The notes below the pieces were generated by a model. That model ran no database searches. It saw nothing but the letters and a program-made list of their open reading frames with translations, and was not told the DNA's origin. A program made the position numbers and the translations under genes. A DNA stretch of 23,210 nt, taken from IMG/VR virus record IMGVR_UViG_2861069343_000008; one strand, written 5' to 3'. Below are positions 11,519 to 16,543 of this stretch, one piece after another; position 1 is the stretch's first letter; each line of letters opens with the position of its first letter. Source of the stretch: a virus. Taxonomy: Duplodnaviria > Heunggongvirae > Uroviricota > Caudoviricetes.

Positions 11519-11812
11519 CTATTGAAAATTGCCGCGATAAAATGCCAACACCCGCTTCATCGCGGCACTCTGGCGACACTCCTTGAAAATCAGATTCGTG
11601 CTCACCTTTCCTTCCCGTTCTTCCCTGGTAGCGAACCGGTAATACACCGTTCGCCAGACCTTACCATCAATAACTAAGATTCCTGTCCGCGCCATTTTAG
11701 CCGCAGCCTGGTTTATGCTGGTTACTGTTGCGCCTGTTACCGCAGCAACGTCCTGCGCACAGAAGCTCTTATGCGTCCCCAGGTAATGAATAATTGCTTC
11801 TTTTCCCGTCAT
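11519..11812 (-). CDS. ren: Ren (rex exclusion-escape protein)
   Basis: 97 aa, MTGKEAIIHYLGTHKSFCAQDVAAVTGATVTSINQAAAKMARTGILVIDGKVWRTVYYRFATREEREGK… matches lambda Ren as recalled. Confidence 0.8.
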   Translation of the reverse strand: MTGKEAIIHYLGTHKSFCAQDVAAVTGATVTSINQAAAKMARTGILVIDGKVWRTVYYRFATREEREGKVSTNLIFKECRQSAAMKRVLAFYRGNFQ

Positions 11813-11887
11813 ACACTGGCTCCTTTCAGTCCGAACTTAGCTTTGATTTCTGCAATCTTCGCCAGAGCCTGTGCACGATTTAGAGGT

Positions 11888-12337
11888 CTAAGTGCCTTTA
11901 CCTGATTTGGGTAAACTTTTCTTACCTGATTCAGGTAAATTTACCTCTTTCAGGTAAACTTTATTTTTCTTACCTGATTCGGGTAATGTTGACCATTCAC
12001 TGACCACATTATTAATGCCTATATTCCGCCCGCTCTGAATAAAAATCCCACGCTTTACCAGAACACTTTTTGCAGCAGAACACTTGTGCGGCAATATCCC
12101 GGTCAACTCGGAAAGTTGCTCGTTGCTCACCCAATCCAGTTTTTTATTAAAGCCATATGTTTTGCGCATGACAGCCAGGAAGACCAGAAGCTGGTGCTGT
12201 GTTAATCCGGCCAGCATTACAGCTTCCAGCAACTCATTTGCAATGCGCGTATAACCATCATCGAGATCTGCCACGCGCGGCTCCTTTTGTGCCGCATCCG
12301 GCACTGGAAAATTGAATATCTCAGCAGTGTTTGCCAT
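11888..12337 (-). CDS. O: Replication initiator O, N-terminal iteron-binding domain only (gene truncated just after the iterons)
   Basis: MANTAEIFNFPVPDAAQKEPRVADLDDGYTRIANELLEA…LLVFLAVMRKTYGFNKK… aligns with the lambda O N-terminal domain. GGGAGG Shine-Dalgarno 7 nt upstream. The ORF ends 10 nt past the last iteron and only 76 bp from ren. No O C-terminal domain and no P gene follow. Confidence 0.7.
   Translation of the reverse strand: MANTAEIFNFPVPDAAQKEPRVADLDDGYTRIANELLEAVMLAGLTQHQLLVFLAVMRKTYGFNKKLDWVSNEQLSELTGILPHKCSAAKSVLVKRGIFIQSGRNIGINNVVSEWSTLPESGKKNKVYLKEVNLPESGKKSLPKSGKGT
11898..11986. repeat. Origin iterons: four 17-bp near-palindromic direct repeats inside the O reading frame
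   Basis: TTACCTGATTTGGGTAA (11898-11914), TTACCTGATTCAGGTAA (11922-11938, perfect palindrome), TTACCTCTTTCAGGTAA (11941-11957) and TTACCTGATTCGGGTAA (11970-11986). They encode the LPESGKK repeats at the end of the ORF. Confidence 0.75.
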
Positions 12338-12423
12338 AATTCCTCCCGCAATGAGTGTGTTACGATTTGCACCTGAAAGTCGGTTCTGTTCCAGCAGACC
12401 GGCTTTCGCCATTTCTGAACCTG

Positions 12424-12963
12424 TCATATCGCCCCCAGCATGGTAGTAACCATCGCCATCAATGGACCAGCCAGATCTGGGTCCACACGAAACATCGACA
12501 CAATACCTTCACTAATTTCCTTCAGTTTCTGGTGGCGTGGTGCGTTGAGAATGACAGCCTGTTTTGCCTCACTGAGTTCCTTTTCCATTTCAGCCAACCT
12601 AGCCATGAAGCTATCCTGCTCAACCAGGTAACCGCGATATTCCAGCGGTAGTACCGCCAGAATTGCCGGGGTCAGTTCACGCACGTTATTTCGGTATTTT
12701 TCAGAATCGAATTTGTTATCGAGGAAGCGGAACAGCTTCTGGCGTGCACGGCTGACATCATCAGGGAAATCGATGGTGCCGCCGCCCTGCTCCCGATACT
12801 CATTCACAATGAGTGTGGCAACGACATCCTGATTATCTTCAGCCGACCAAGCGCGGACGGCATCACGGATTTTTTCGTGGCCTGGCACCTGTTTTGTTTG
12901 AGAACGATTTATCACCGCAGTCGGGCTAAATCCGCTAGTCTGTTGGTATGTAAGTGGTTGCAT
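12424..12963 (-). CDS. YdaT-like protein (occupies the cII position downstream of cro)
   Basis: 179-aa ORF directly downstream of the cro-like gene and upstream of O. Family assignment is a tentative recollection of Rac YdaT-type proteins. Confidence 0.45.
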   Translation of the reverse strand: MQPLTYQQTSGFSPTAVINRSQTKQVPGHEKIRDAVRAWSAEDNQDVVATLIVNEYREQGGGTIDFPDDVSRARQKLFRFLDNKFDSEKYRNNVRELTPAILAVLPLEYRGYLVEQDSFMARLAEMEKELSEAKQAVILNAPRHQKLKEISEGIVSMFRVDPDLAGPLMAMVTTMLGAI

Positions 12964-13032
12964 AATTGACTCCTTTAGTTTGAATTGACTGTTAAGTTGA
13001 TTGCTTATTGTTAAAGAGCGTGAAATGGAAAT

Positions 13033-13263
13033 TTAAGCTGCGTTCTTTTCGGTGTGTGGAAACAACTTCGGAAGATCCGGGCGAATCTGGTATGCCTTCA
13101 CTACTCCACCAGTAGCCGTAACAATGCTGCCGACATGTTCAGGGGATACCTTTGCTTTGTTGTGAAGCCACTTATAGACGGCCTGCTGTGAAACTTCGCA
13201 AGCAGCGCCCAGTTTCTTTTGTGAACCAACGATATTGATCGCTGTTTTGATAGCTGGGTTCAT
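13033..13263 (-). CDS. cro: Cro-like HTH repressor (YdaS/Cro family)
   Basis: 76 aa with an HTH (QKKLGAACEVSQQAVYKWLHNK), divergent from cI across an operator-rich spacer. GGAGG Shine-Dalgarno upstream. Confidence 0.7.
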   Translation of the reverse strand: MNPAIKTAINIVGSQKKLGAACEVSQQAVYKWLHNKAKVSPEHVGSIVTATGGVVKAYQIRPDLPKLFPHTEKNAA

Positions 13264-13290
13264 AACAACCTCCGTGGTTAATTTGAATCA

Positions 13291-13362
13291 AGATTAAAAC
13301 TATGGTTGTTTTTAGTCAACAACCATTTTCGTTTGATGGAATAAAACCTTGGTTGTACATTT
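13291..13362. promoter_or_regulatory. OR-like region: divergent pR / pRM with three operator repeats
   Basis: Three related sites: AAAACTATGGTTGTTTT (13297-13313), AACAACCATTTT (about 13318-13331) and AAAACCTTGGTTGTACA (13345-13361). For cro: -35 TTGACT and -10-like TAATCT on the minus strand, with an operator in the spacer. For cI: a -10-like TACATT ending about 7 nt before the ATG. Confidence 0.55.
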
Positions 13363-13367
13363 GGACT

Positions 13368-14057
13368 ATGAAAACAACACTCTCAGAAAGACTTAAAGAA
13401 GCCAGATTAGCGCGAGGCCTTACACAAAAGGCGCTTGGGGATTTGGTCGGGGTTAGCCAAGCTGCTATTCAGAAAATCGAAACAGGGAAAGCTAATCAAA
13501 CAACTAAAATCGTGGAGATCGCGAACGCTTTGGGTGTGCGCGCAGAATGGTTATCTTCTGGCGTTGGAAATATGTCAGACAGTACAGTGCAACCAATACA
13601 ATCAACTGTCAGCCATTCCAAATACTTCAAGATTGACGTTCTTGATATAGAAGTCAGTGCTGGGCCGGGAGTCATCAACCGTGAGTTTGTAGAAGTTCTA
13701 CGCTCGGTTGAGTACTCGTTTGACGATGCTCGTCACATGTTCGATGGTAGGAAGGCGGAAAATATCCGCATCATTAACGTGCGTGGTGACAGCATGTCAG
13801 GAACGATCGAACCAGGTGATCTGCTGTTCGTTGATATCACAGTTAAATCTTTCGACGGTGATGGTATCTATGCGTTTCTGTACGACGACACAGCCCATGT
13901 AAAGCGCCTGCAAATGATGAAGGATAAGCTGCTGGTCATCTCTGATAACAAAAGCTACTCACCGTGGGACCCGATCGAGAAAGACGAGATGAACCGGGTG
14001 TTCATCTTCGGTAAGGTTATTGGGAGCATGCCGCAGACATATAGGAAGCATGGTTAA
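13368..14057 (+). CDS. cI: CI-type prophage repressor (HTH-XRE N-domain plus S24 LexA-like autopeptidase C-domain)
   Basis: MKTTLSERLKEARLARGLTQKALGDLVGVSQAAIQKIETGK… HTH. Ala-Gly cleavage site (VSAGPG), Ser nucleophile in RGDSMSG and Lys in HVKRL. The track ORF starts at 13302 inside the operator, so I prefer 13368. Confidence 0.85.
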   Translation: MKTTLSERLKEARLARGLTQKALGDLVGVSQAAIQKIETGKANQTTKIVEIANALGVRAEWLSSGVGNMSDSTVQPIQSTVSHSKYFKIDVLDIEVSAGPGVINREFVEVLRSVEYSFDDARHMFDGRKAENIRIINVRGDSMSGTIEPGDLLFVDITVKSFDGDGIYAFLYDDTAHVKRLQMMKDKLLVISDNKSYSPWDPIEKDEMNRVFIFGKVIGSMPQTYRKHG

Positions 14058-14179
14058 AGTGAGGCTAAAAAACAGTTACAGCAATAGGCCTGTTGTTTTT
14101 CTTTAAACACGCAGTGTTAAACCGCTCTTTGAGATGCGGAGTAATGAGATGGAAGACTTGAATCACATAAGGGTTAGTG

Positions 14180-14929
14180 ATGGAGTGCGTAGCGAGCAGC
14201 AATAGTGCAATACCTAATGTCGTTGAAGTAATACGTCGCATCAATGAAGGTTCCACTCAGCCATTTCTTTGCAAATGTGATGATGGGCAGTTGTATGTTT
14301 TGAAGTCAAAACCATCAATGCCCCCGAAAAATCTCTTAGCTGAGTTCATTTCGGCGTGTTTGGCTAATGATATCGGCCTTCCTTTACCTGACTTTAAAAT
14401 CGTATTTGTGCCAGAGGAACTTATAGAGTACTCACCTGATCTGCAGCAACAAATTTGTACAGGATATGCCTTTGCTTCATTGTTCATTGACGGTGCAATA
14501 GCGTTAACGTTTACGCAGTCAAGAAACGAAACGATCATCCCAGTCGAACAGCAAAAATTAATCTATGTTTTTGATAAATGGATATTAAATGCAGACAGAA
14601 CGCTTACTGACAAAGGTGGAAACGTTAACATCCTTTATGACATCAGTAACGATAAGTATTATCTGATTGACCATAATCTCTCATTTGATCAGAATGCTGG
14701 ACCTGAAGATTTTTCTGTGCACGTGTACGGCCCTGGTAACCGCAAATGGCAATATGATTTAGTGGATCGCGTAGAGTACCGCCAGAGGGTCGTTAACAGT
14801 TTACACAAGCTTCCTGCTATCCTTGACGAAATTCCAGAAGAGTGGATAGTAGATGAGGAGTTTTTACCTTTTGTCTGCACTACGCTAGACAAAGGTGATT
14901 GTGATGAATTTTGGAGCGCAATAGAATGA
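14180..14929 (+). CDS. Putative kinase-fold protein (HipA / PI3-4-kinase-like motifs) in the rexA position; function unknown
   Basis: About 249 aa, first gene downstream of cI on the same strand. AAGGG Shine-Dalgarno 7 nt upstream. By-eye motifs: VLKSKP (possible ATP-binding Lys), FDKWILNADRTLTDKGGNVNIL (catalytic-loop-like) and YLIDHNLSF (DFG-like). Lower GC than flanking phage genes. Confidence 0.55.
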   Translation: MECVASSNSAIPNVVEVIRRINEGSTQPFLCKCDDGQLYVLKSKPSMPPKNLLAEFISACLANDIGLPLPDFKIVFVPEELIEYSPDLQQQICTGYAFASLFIDGAIALTFTQSRNETIIPVEQQKLIYVFDKWILNADRTLTDKGGNVNILYDISNDKYYLIDHNLSFDQNAGPEDFSVHVYGPGNRKWQYDLVDRVEYRQRVVNSLHKLPAILDEIPEEWIVDEEFLPFVCTTLDKGDCDEFWSAIE

Positions 14930-15753
14930 CAACTCCATGCCTATATAGCATCGTTCGCTATGCGCCTTATGCGGAGACTGAAGAATTCGCAAACATAGGC
15001 GTACTTCTGTGCGCGCCAAAAGAAAATTACTTTGATTTCCAGCTCACAAAGCGAAATGACTCTCGTGTAAAGAATTTTTTCCATGATGATTGTATTTTCC
15101 CTGTAGCAAAAGACTCAATACAAAGAGAACTACAGTTCGCAAAAATGCATGCGACCCAGATTGTTGGACATCAACAACTTGCACAATTCTTCAGATATTT
15201 TACAAACAAAAAAGAATCAATTTTTCAGTTCAGTTCTACGAGAGTGATTCTCAGCGAAAACCCAAAAGAAGAGCTGGCCCGCATTTACAATAAATATGTA
15301 AACCACTCTGACTACACAAAAGAGCGCCGTGAAGATGTTCTAGCCAGAGAGCTAAAACGAAGTATCGATAGAATAGATGGATTGAAGAACGTCTTCAAAC
15401 AAGCAACCATTGATGGGTATTTCGCAAAGTTCTCAATGCCATTGGTCGCCAAGAAGCATGACAGGATCCAATGTGCCATCAAACCTCTGGCATTCACTCA
15501 AGCTGAACCAGGAAAAATGATGGAGCATAGTGATACTTGGGTGATGAGAATAACTCGAGCAGCAGAAGAAAACCTGCTTTCACTTGATGACATTTTATTC
15601 ACAATTGAAACTCCTGAATCACCAAACTCAGGCCAAAGCAAAGTTATTGACATCATAAAGAGAACTATGGATGCTAAGAAAATAAATCATATACCTGCAT
15701 CCAACCACAAAGAAACTATTGATTTTGCAAAAAAAATACTTCCCCAAGTTTAA
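14926..15753 (+). CDS. DUF3037-like protein in the rexB position; function unknown
   Basis: 275 aa. The start ATG overlaps the upstream stop (ATGA), with GGAG 9 nt upstream. The N-terminus (LYSIVRYAPYAETEEFANIGVLL) matches the DUF3037 signature as I recall it. Followed by a strong terminator. Confidence 0.55.
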   Translation: MTTPCLYSIVRYAPYAETEEFANIGVLLCAPKENYFDFQLTKRNDSRVKNFFHDDCIFPVAKDSIQRELQFAKMHATQIVGHQQLAQFFRYFTNKKESIFQFSSTRVILSENPKEELARIYNKYVNHSDYTKERREDVLARELKRSIDRIDGLKNVFKQATIDGYFAKFSMPLVAKKHDRIQCAIKPLAFTQAEPGKMMEHSDTWVMRITRAAEENLLSLDDILFTIETPESPNSGQSKVIDIIKRTMDAKKINHIPASNHKETIDFAKKILPQV

Positions 15754-15787
15754 AATTTATTTTTGTATGTGATATTCCTTATTAATA

Positions 15788-15815
15788 ACCCGGCCACCGT
15801 GCCGGGTTTTCTTTT
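15788..15815 (+). terminator. Rho-independent terminator ending the cI-distal operon
   Basis: ACCCGGC-CACCGT-GCCGGGT hairpin followed by TTTTCTTTTG, 35 bp after the DUF3037-like stop. Confidence 0.65.
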
Positions 15816-15926
15816 GCCTCCCCTCATCACACAAACCGCTCAAAAAACCACCATAACCTCGCTTCAGTTATCGCTATGCGATTCAAGTCACAAAATAAAT
15901 CCATCCTAAATACAACCAGTTATATC

Positions 15927-15985
15927 TAAAACAACCAATAAAACAACTTTTGTTGTTGACGGTAAAACAACTATAGTTTTAAATA
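15927..15985 (+). promoter_or_regulatory. OL / pL-like region: three operator repeats overlapping a rightward promoter
   Basis: Repeats AAAACAACCAAT, AAAACAACTTTTGTTGTT and AAAACAACTATAGTTTT share the OR core. -35 TTGACG (15956-15961), 17-nt spacer containing an operator, -10 TTAAAT (15979-15984). Same architecture as the cro promoter. Confidence 0.5.
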
Positions 15986-16177
15986 GGTTCATCGCAACAA
16001 CACAACGATACGGCAACCACCTGATTCACCGTTGCGATGACCGCTTAGATCCGCAGTTTGAATTTCAGCAGGCTTCGGGGAGTGCGAGGGGTGAAACGGA
16101 CGCGTGAACGTCGGTGTGACCAGCTGAAATCAACTCAACATTTCATACCTTAGTCGCTTCAACGAGGCGGCTTAGTT

Positions 16178-16468
16178 ATGACAACCGGCGGCCATCCACC
16201 GCCTGAATACGCGCAGAAGTCTCTATATGTTCAGCAGCCCAGCTTACGGGCAGGAGTTTTTATGGTTCATCAACATTACGGAACGCAGACCGTTAATCGC
16301 GGCGCGGTCATGCCAGGAATGCTGGTCAAACACAAAGATGGTACCTGGACTGCATCAGCTAATTTACGCGGACGGCTTTATCTGCATCGCGGCATCGAGC
16401 GCACTTATACCCGTGATTTGCTCGTGGAAGTTTTTCTCGACGGACGCGGTAACGGCCTGAATCACTAA
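16178..16468 (+). CDS. Hypothetical protein immediately upstream of gam (kil position)
   Basis: 96-aa ORF with GAGG about 10 nt upstream. Not recognisably lambda N, cIII or Kil. Its stop lies in the sequence where lambda would encode the N-terminal extension of full-length Gam. Confidence 0.45.
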
Positions 16469-16543
16469 TCCCCTTTCCTGTTTTCCTAATCAGCCTGGCA
16501 TTTCGCGGGCGATATTTTCACAGCCATTTTCAGGAGGTCAGCC

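Follow-up and report, generated by a model that had tools for sequence, protein, structure and literature searches.

Lambdoid phages have two textbook routes of early read-through, the N protein of lambda with its nut sites and the put RNA of HK022, and the module described here has neither. It lies in a lambdoid prophage within a stretch of DNA of 23,210 nucleotides (nt) (IMG/VR record IMGVR_UViG_2861069343_000008, Caudoviricetes; the whole stretch is called the window below), between the left early promoter pL and the recombination genes gam, bet and exo. The first gene after pL is a kil gene, which is preceded by a long untranslated leader, and on the right arm cro is followed by a boxA sequence of the type found in ribosomal RNA (rrn) operons. 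This N-less layout is a common, working design of viable phages, though the prophage of the window is itself defective. Our reading, which we hold with middling confidence, is that lambdoid phages of a widespread group have an early-left region which is N-less by design, and that they combine a leader tuning the expression of kil with a right-arm boxA recruiting Nus factors.

If so, derepression would lead directly to the production of Kil and of the Red functions, which lambda reaches only after N-dependent read-through. The leader would not be a modifier of RNA polymerase; it would mainly provide post-transcriptional control of the toxic kil gene, by means of two hairpins, X and Y, hiding a Shine–Dalgarno (SD) sequence and the AUG at 16178. 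On the right arm, the boxA after cro would recruit the host NusB/NusE-NusA-NusG-SuhB complex, and this complex would shield transcription from the right promoter pR against Rho en route to the antiterminator gene Q, without the help of a phage N protein.

The pL promoter and the first genes of its operon

The left operator oL is present in two copies forming a direct repeat (15939–15954 and 15963–15978), and the 19 nt at 15964–15982 are 95% complementary to 13294–13312 at pR. The pL hexamers, as read from the sequence, are TTGACG (−35, 15956–15961) and TTAAAT (−10, 15979–15984), separated by a 17-nt spacer; a simple promoter scan missed pL because its −10 hexamer fails the rule of the scan. 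Promoter and operators align with the pL of UPF_BP1 and phiEt88, two phages that carry put, and by analogy with these the transcript would start at about 15990/15991. Some 187 nt separate this start from the ATG at 16178, in keeping with an earlier note on this DNA, which had put about 190 bp between a pL-like promoter and an open reading frame (ORF) of 96 amino acids (aa).

No N gene was found in this interval. Apart from the kil frame, the ORFs of at least 20 aa in 15950–16265 are all 22–36 aa long; none of the early ORFs matched an N-like family in PHROGs, Pfam or NCBIfam, there was no BLASTP similarity to lambda N or Nun, and Q is the sole antiterminator annotated by PGAP on an identical prophage. 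The first gene after pL does not encode a protein of ~100 aa with an N-terminal arginine-rich motif, as it does in lambda-type phages, and the pL transcript carries no nutL, that is, a boxA followed by a boxB hairpin: on the plus strand downstream of pL, no boxA-like match appeared even when two to three mismatches were tolerated. The earlier note had likewise reported neither an N-like gene between pL and the recombination genes nor a nutL site, and none of the finds that it named as contrary evidence (a small N-like ORF, a canonical nut site or a 96-aa product that is a divergent N) turned up. As in lambda, pL and pR flank cI and cro, gam, bet and exo are almost identical to lambda's, and a boxA lies just after cro, as in nutR. 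Unlike lambda, the window lacks N, nutL and the N-tL1-ral-sieB-ea10-cIII segment (~2.2 kb in lambda), and neither of the two sites has a boxB.

By its family matches, the 96-aa ORF (16178–16468) is Kil. It had been described as an unknown gene not recognisable as N, of which only the second part holds. It matches PHROG 294 ("Kil protein for bacterial septation inhibition") with an E-value of 1.2e-38 and the NCBIfam model of Rac KilR, NF008465 ("FtsZ inhibitor protein"), with an E-value of 1.8e-17, and identical genes are named Kil in the phages PhiR5_1 and Perceval ("phi80 Kil homolog" in the latter). The homology to Rac KilR and phi80 Kil spans the full length of the 68-aa product (positions 1–70 of the 73 of NF008465), although the score of 63 bits is under the subfamily cut-off of 92. 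Kil would thus be predicted to inhibit FtsZ and cell division. It differs from the unrelated 47-aa Kil of lambda, which is distal and N-dependent, whereas kil of the window is the first gene after pL. Kil is not a substitute for N, because homologues occur in phages that carry N (phi80, Stx) as well as in phages that carry put (HK639, CobraSix).

The true start of Kil is probably Met29 of the ORF (16262), which gives a protein of 68 aa. Indeed, the first position of the NF008465 profile aligns to residue 29, the PGAP annotation gives a "phage encoded cell division inhibitor" of 68 aa with a start equivalent to 16262, an SD (AGGAG) is present at 16252–16256, and the Kil homologues of Citrobacter, Kluyvera, Enterobacter, Silvania and Pseudocitrobacter start ATGGTTCAT with an SD of their own. 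The 28 preceding codons, missing from the homologues of other genera, are probably an upstream reading frame or leader sequence outside the conserved Kil; in HK225, the equivalent AUG opens a separate frame of 21 codons (MTIGGHPPP...), and in one relative (L082) homology starts just ~55 nt before kil. The deposited Kil is 139 aa long in Perceval, with a non-standard start (4258–4677), and 96 aa long in PhiR5_1 (4479–4769). With a start at Met29, the 96-aa and 139-aa annotations that several phages have in the databases should be shortened to 68 aa.

Further downstream, gam has the GamS length only, as the earlier note had proposed: residues 1–98 of 98 match Pfam PF06064 (E = 3.4e-65), an in-frame TAA (16487–16489) closes the frame upstream of the ATG, and lambda-homologous DNA upstream of gam begins only at ~16455. 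None of these genes is unusual: Kil, a Gam of GamS length, Bet and Exo all have annotations in public phage genomes.

Kil and the Red genes need neither N nor another antiterminator, because a scan of the plus strand found no strong intrinsic terminator between pL and the end of exo (weak candidates lie at 16411–16427 and 16493–16510). Genes distal to exo, beyond which the first good terminators are found (table 1), might need antitermination. In the nin5 and byp mutants of lambda, N is made dispensable by the removal of terminators that separate essential genes from the early promoters. The principle, N being dispensable where terminators are absent, is shared by the window, whose design differs in being natural and widespread rather than a laboratory deletion, and in retaining the distal terminators.

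This arrangement is found well beyond the window. A 187-nt leader sequence is present in 2209 of 5426 complete E. coli genomes (~41%), with no feature annotated under it. PhiR5_1, a phage propagated on E. coli C, is 100% identical to the window over 15940–16180, and 14 further deposited phages, among them Perceval (genus Bievrevirus), 4A7 and Lambda_4C10, share the pL-leader-kil segment at 93–99% identity; PhiR5_1, Perceval and 4A7 form plaques. In the two phages that were inspected across their early regions, Q is present and no N is annotated. Homologues in Citrobacter, Kluyvera, Klebsiella and Salmonella likewise have kil directly after pL.

The search for put and the boxA of the right arm

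That early expression is independent of N, as the earlier note had suggested, stands in outline: neither N nor nutL is present, and phages with the same module have been grown on laboratory hosts. The mechanism given there as an example, an RNA-based one as in HK022, does not stand. Put sequences were gathered from GenBank annotations of putL and putR and by BLAST searches starting from HK022, and a covariance model of eight of them was run against the window with filters off. These eight sequences have invariant GAACGGC, GUCGG, GGCG.GG and CAAU blocks and a two-stem consensus structure with seven covarying pairs. On the two early transcripts of the window, nothing matched the model at E ≤ 1, the top match (7.3 bits, E = 2) lying within kil, and the pL leader gave no match at E ≤ 10; the putL of Salmonella phage S9-5, which is outside the training set and served as positive control, scored 86.7 bits (E = 3e-18). 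The model had no match in relatives of the window either, nor in HK225, mEp237, Mulock, SEN34, Perceval or the YD786 prophage. HK022-type put, a two-stem RNA of ~70 nt that has a GAACGGC..GUCGG..GGCG.GG..CAAU core and acts via the β′ zinc-binding domain of RNA polymerase, is absent from both early transcripts. Rfam, searched with the whole window at gathering thresholds and with 15750–16600 and 12850–13350 under permissive settings, returned chance-level matches only, mostly at the terminator at 15787.

The resemblance to put-carrying phages is one of layout. Like the put carriers HK022, HK639, phiEt88, UPF_BP1, CobraSix and S9-5, the phages considered here are lambdoid and N-less. In UPF_BP1 and phiEt88, promoter, operators and Cro (68% identical) are homologous to those of the window, putL follows the homologous pL and putR sits in the slot of the boxA, so that in the alignments the leader and boxA of the window fill the putL and putR slots. 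Unlike in HK022, there is no match to the put model, and the 5′ part of the leader has no significant fold or covariation.

The boxA, which is outside the segment treated in the earlier note, lies 13 nt past the cro stop codon, in the nutR/putR slot, in sense orientation on the pR transcript. The 13-mer CGCTCTTTAACAA has a single exact occurrence in the window (13008–13020, minus strand), and the rrn-type consensus GCUCUUUA(ACAA) is matched by CGCUCUUUAACAAU at 13007–13020 on the minus strand, the sense strand of the pR operon. The element is of the rrn consensus, and not of lambda's CGCUCUUA; with its flanks, CAC-GCUCUUUA-ACAAU, it equals the rrnG antiterminator CAC-UGCUCUUUA-ACAAU minus one U (rrnG reference sequence CACugcucuuuaacaauuua; PMC2724277). 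In rrnG, the CUUUA form, the upstream CAC and the spacer each add Nus-factor binding, and complexes of the rrn type suppress Rho-dependent terminators without N (PMC2724277); boxA alone shields CRISPR-array transcripts from Rho (PMC7665894). As in the rRNA operons, suhB and CRISPR arrays, the boxA of the window lies in sense orientation early in a long operon, and no phage protein is evident as its partner. It differs from them in lying in a translated phage early operon rather than in a non-coding RNA. By analogy with these systems, it would bring the host Nus complex to the pR transcript.

Two other boxA-like sequences were considered. CGCUCUUUGAGAU (14123–14135, plus strand) lies on the lysogenic transcript, between cI and the HipA-like gene, and its three mismatches to the 13-mer are within chance expectation; GCCCUUUAACA, in a Silvania prophage, was dismissed, as it sits in coding sequence. 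A further one is found in HK225 (1246–1320), where a hairpin and the boxA-like UGCUUUUUAACAA stand in the place that putL has in HK639 and CobraSix; this phage has no annotated N, and its pL leader, in which the put model found no match, agrees with those of HK639 and CobraSix over the first ~45 nt. Such replacements suggest that boxA cassettes and put cassettes may be interchangeable.

Instead of recruiting Nus factors, the boxA might be a relic of an N-dependent nutR, functionless or even negative as in the suhB leader, in which case pR transcription would reach Q unassisted. No boxB-like hairpin occurs in the 45 nt between the boxA and the SD of the next gene, the pL transcript has no boxA, and viable Perceval-type relatives manage without one; moreover, the conservation of the element tells little, because 29 of 29 copies are found on one near-identical cro allele. 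On the other hand, the match exceeds the lambda type by the rrn CUUUA, the ACAAU spacer and the NusA-binding CAC, which would be unexpected in decay, and the element sits exactly where relatives have putR, a functional antiterminator cassette. The exchange seen in HK225 also argues for a working cassette rather than a remnant, and we consider a relic rather unlikely.

The pL leader and competing explanations

Homology with phages of other immunity types begins at ~15991–15993, which is the presumed transcript start, so that the leader travels with the kil module and not with the immunity module. In a third immunity type (L048), the leader is common only from ~16025 on. The first 40 nt are rich in C and poor in G (GC skew of −0.50 over 15991–16030). 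Alignments of the leader with the pL leaders of HK225, HK639 and a Citrobacter prophage were insignificant, being equalled by 219, 25 and 137 of 300 shuffles, respectively.

Hairpins X and Y are the only well-supported structure of the leader. The segment 16141–16206 folds with a z-score of −4.03, a value reached by none of 200 shuffles; among 39 unique variants, six of the seven variable pairs remain paired, and HK225 keeps both hairpins upstream of kil, its three differences all falling in unpaired positions. Hairpin X pairs both the SD (GAGG, 16164–16167) and the AUG (16178–16180) of the 96-aa frame. It is more likely that X/Y tunes the expression of kil than that it modifies RNA polymerase. 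The frame under hairpin X starts MTTGGHPPP, with a polyproline stretch, and the copy in HK225 lies just after an intrinsic terminator. Together, X/Y and this frame may form a leader-peptide or translational control of kil.

Several observations weigh against a leader that only tunes kil and a boxA that suffices for read-through, and some of them lend weight to a different explanation, in which the 5′ part of the leader (~15991–16140) is a new, protein-free, cis-acting processive antiterminator RNA, analogous to putL and unrelated to it in sequence. Put more broadly, the leader of ~150–270 nt would be an unrecognised cis element making pL transcription resistant to terminators without N or the put fold, with the boxA as its right-arm counterpart. 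Strong intrinsic terminators do stand in the distal pL operon before xis/int (18964–18992 and 20476–20495), and rrn-type complexes counter Rho-dependent terminators, not intrinsic ones (PMC2724277). Perceval, viable and N-less, has the same distal terminators and strong ones between P and Q as well, and has no boxA after cro; such phages must therefore still need read-through, internal promoters or another antiterminator. Moreover, the leader joins at least three different immunity regions at a point that all but coincides with the transcript start, in a slot that is occupied by putL in relatives with homologous promoter, operators and Cro, which fits a promoter-proximal element. The leader is also very common in E. 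coli, and a 22-nt hairpin within it, GAAACGGACG-CGUGAA-CGUCGG, resembles stem I of put.

The structure of the leader does not bear this explanation out. Besides the failure of the put model to find a match in it, its folding energies are ordinary, with z-scores of −1.37 for a 5′ stem, −1.54 for a central three-way junction and +0.33 for the whole 5′ 150 nt. We rejected both the stem and the junction, as substitutions in the 39 unique variants do not favour their pairs: four junction pairs are kept and four broken, one of them in 22 of the 39 variants, and in the 5′ stem one is kept and three are broken, in a covariation test limited by the small variation among relatives that are 90–100% identical. 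In addition, relatives of the L048 type have swapped the first ~35 nt, other variants bear indels of 1 nt and 5 nt, the pR transcript has no counterpart of the leader, and Perceval has no room for one near cro. An antiterminator RNA in the 5′ part of the leader is, in our judgement, improbable, and the broader version, with a leader-wide element and the boxA as its counterpart, is doubtful to the same degree.

Two further sequences of this kind were seen. The 13-mer AATCAACTYAACA occurs at 16128–16140 (plus strand) and 12990–13002 (minus strand), in sense orientation on both early transcripts and nowhere else in the window; it was not adopted as a nut-like site, being marginal (24 of 1000 shuffles) and varying among relatives, some of which have a TCAAC duplication in the pL copy. 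Elsewhere, three different pL promoters are immediately followed by a leader block of ~65 nt, CCACCGAGGCAGGACGCCCACGAAGUAGCCGUCCGGGGCAUACGAAAACCGGAAUGAGGUGG, with ~95% conservation, in mEp237 (3272–3340), SEN34 (2835–2900) and Citrobacter youngae (~2760–2830), which are N-less and put-less and represent three genera; its fold has a z-score of −0.28, and its variation is too small for a covariation test.

Far less probable is that an arginine-rich frame of the leader (..RLRGVRGVKRTRERR..) encodes a minimal N-like RNA-binding peptide or, in relatives with CAG in place of its TAG stop codon, the arginine-rich motif (ARM) of an ARM-Kil fusion acting as antiterminator. The frame includes RTRERR, which we take to resemble the arginine-rich motif of lambda N; in 33 of 47 unique leaders it continues into kil without a stop codon or a frameshift, and the annotators of Perceval called a 139-aa ORF there. 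We nevertheless judged it non-coding and rejected it as a candidate N. It ends at a TAG (16151–16153) in the window and in the plaque-forming PhiR5_1, among nine unique variants with TAG, most relatives having CAG; four variants have the frame shifted by a 5-nt insertion, and indels of 1 nt are found ahead of the motif. The frame begins with a TTG that has no SD, has no boxB partner, no PHROG match and no BLASTP similarity to N or Nun, and is missing from the Kil homologues of other genera, while an open frame of ~71 codons is, by our estimate, expected by chance in ~5% of frames with this composition.

Lastly, the proposal of the earlier note that N was lost and Q cut off from a broken early cascade through decay of this prophage agrees with its defects (O of 179 aa, P missing, fragmentary late region), but is scarcely credible given the identical pL-leader-kil segment of PhiR5_1, which grows on E. 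coli C, its close copies in 14 other phages and the position of kil directly after pL in four other genera.

Layout of the prophage and meaning of the module

The prophage is drawn in the window opposite to the orientation of the lambda map, and adjoins ybhC at the lambda attachment site. Its defects are extensive: O (11519–12427 region) is cut to 179 aa and retains the N-terminal Phage_rep_O domain only, P is absent, the region being ~1.1 kb short relative to its counterpart in strain YD786, and of the late region (1–3700) a packaging gene, tail-fibre fragments and a methyltransferase are left. The immunity region (13033–14057) consists of cro and cI, and a strong terminator follows the 3′ end of Q (7868–7845, minus strand; terminator scan). 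The features discussed are collected in table 1.

Table 1. Coordinates of the features of the prophage in the window
Feature	Position	Strand	Basis
Q antiterminator gene	7967–8359	minus	Pfam Phage_antitermQ (E = 2.5e-51); PHROG 79
rrn-type boxA with flanks, CAC-GCUCUUUA-ACAAU	13007–13022	minus	exact match; read from sequence
cro	13033–13263	minus	Pfam YdaS/P22_Cro
cI	13302–14057	plus	Pfam HTH_3 and Peptidase_S24
Intrinsic terminator ending the cI/HipA-like/DUF3037 lysogenic transcript, upstream of pL	15787–15815	plus	terminator scan
oL/pL	15939–15984	plus	operator repeats; alignment with UPF_BP1 and phiEt88 pL
Untranslated pL leader, unannotated, ~270 nt	15991–16261	plus	homology across immunity types
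Arginine-rich 31-codon frame, TTG start, in frame with kil (judged non-coding)	16058–16153	plus	ORF list
Hairpins X (16143–16181) and Y (16187–16203)	16143–16203	plus	fold z-score; pair-keeping substitutions
N-terminal 28 codons of the 96-aa ORF	16178–16261	plus	missing from homologues of other genera
kil, predicted 68-aa FtsZ/cell-division inhibitor, Rac KilR/phi80 Kil family	16262–16468	plus	PHROG 294; NCBIfam NF008465; PGAP
gam, 98-aa GamS-length form	16544–16840	plus	Pfam PF06064
bet	16846–17631	plus	ORF; annotation of identical genes
exo	17628–18308	plus	ORF; annotation of identical genes
First good intrinsic terminators of the pL operon	18369–18391 and 18964–18992	plus	terminator scan
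Further terminators upstream of xis/int	20249–20268, 20280–20299 and 20476–20495	plus	terminator scan

The terminator upstream of pL has an 8-bp stem with six GC pairs, followed by TTCTTTTG. Between it and cI, a gene for a HipA_2-family kinase (250 aa) overlaps a DUF3037 gene (280 aa) on the plus strand (14177–15753), both occupying the position of rexAB in lambda. The annotation of PhiR5_1 names this pair HipA toxin and HipD antitoxin, and we regard it as a candidate toxin-antitoxin or defence pair expressed in the lysogen. The distal pL operon contains a DksA/TraR-type zinc-finger gene (19042–19263, plus strand), and between this gene and xis lies a gene for a 200-aa membrane protein with its own terminator (19474–20076, minus strand).

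In the literature on Perceval/Bievrevirus, HK225 and N-independent lambdoid phages, we found no description of this module; a 2025 paper remarks on another N-less lambdoid phage and guesses put (PMC12315714). Carried by viable phages and by about two-fifths of complete E. coli genomes, the module is common, already sequenced and mechanistically unstudied. If the boxA acts with host Nus factors alone, it would represent a third strategy of early read-through, one that dispenses with a phage protein by borrowing the antitermination machinery of ribosomal RNA; if the leader modifies RNA polymerase, it would define a new class of antiterminator RNA. The leader is, moreover, a candidate site of control over Kil, a toxic division inhibitor that would be made as soon as the prophage is derepressed.

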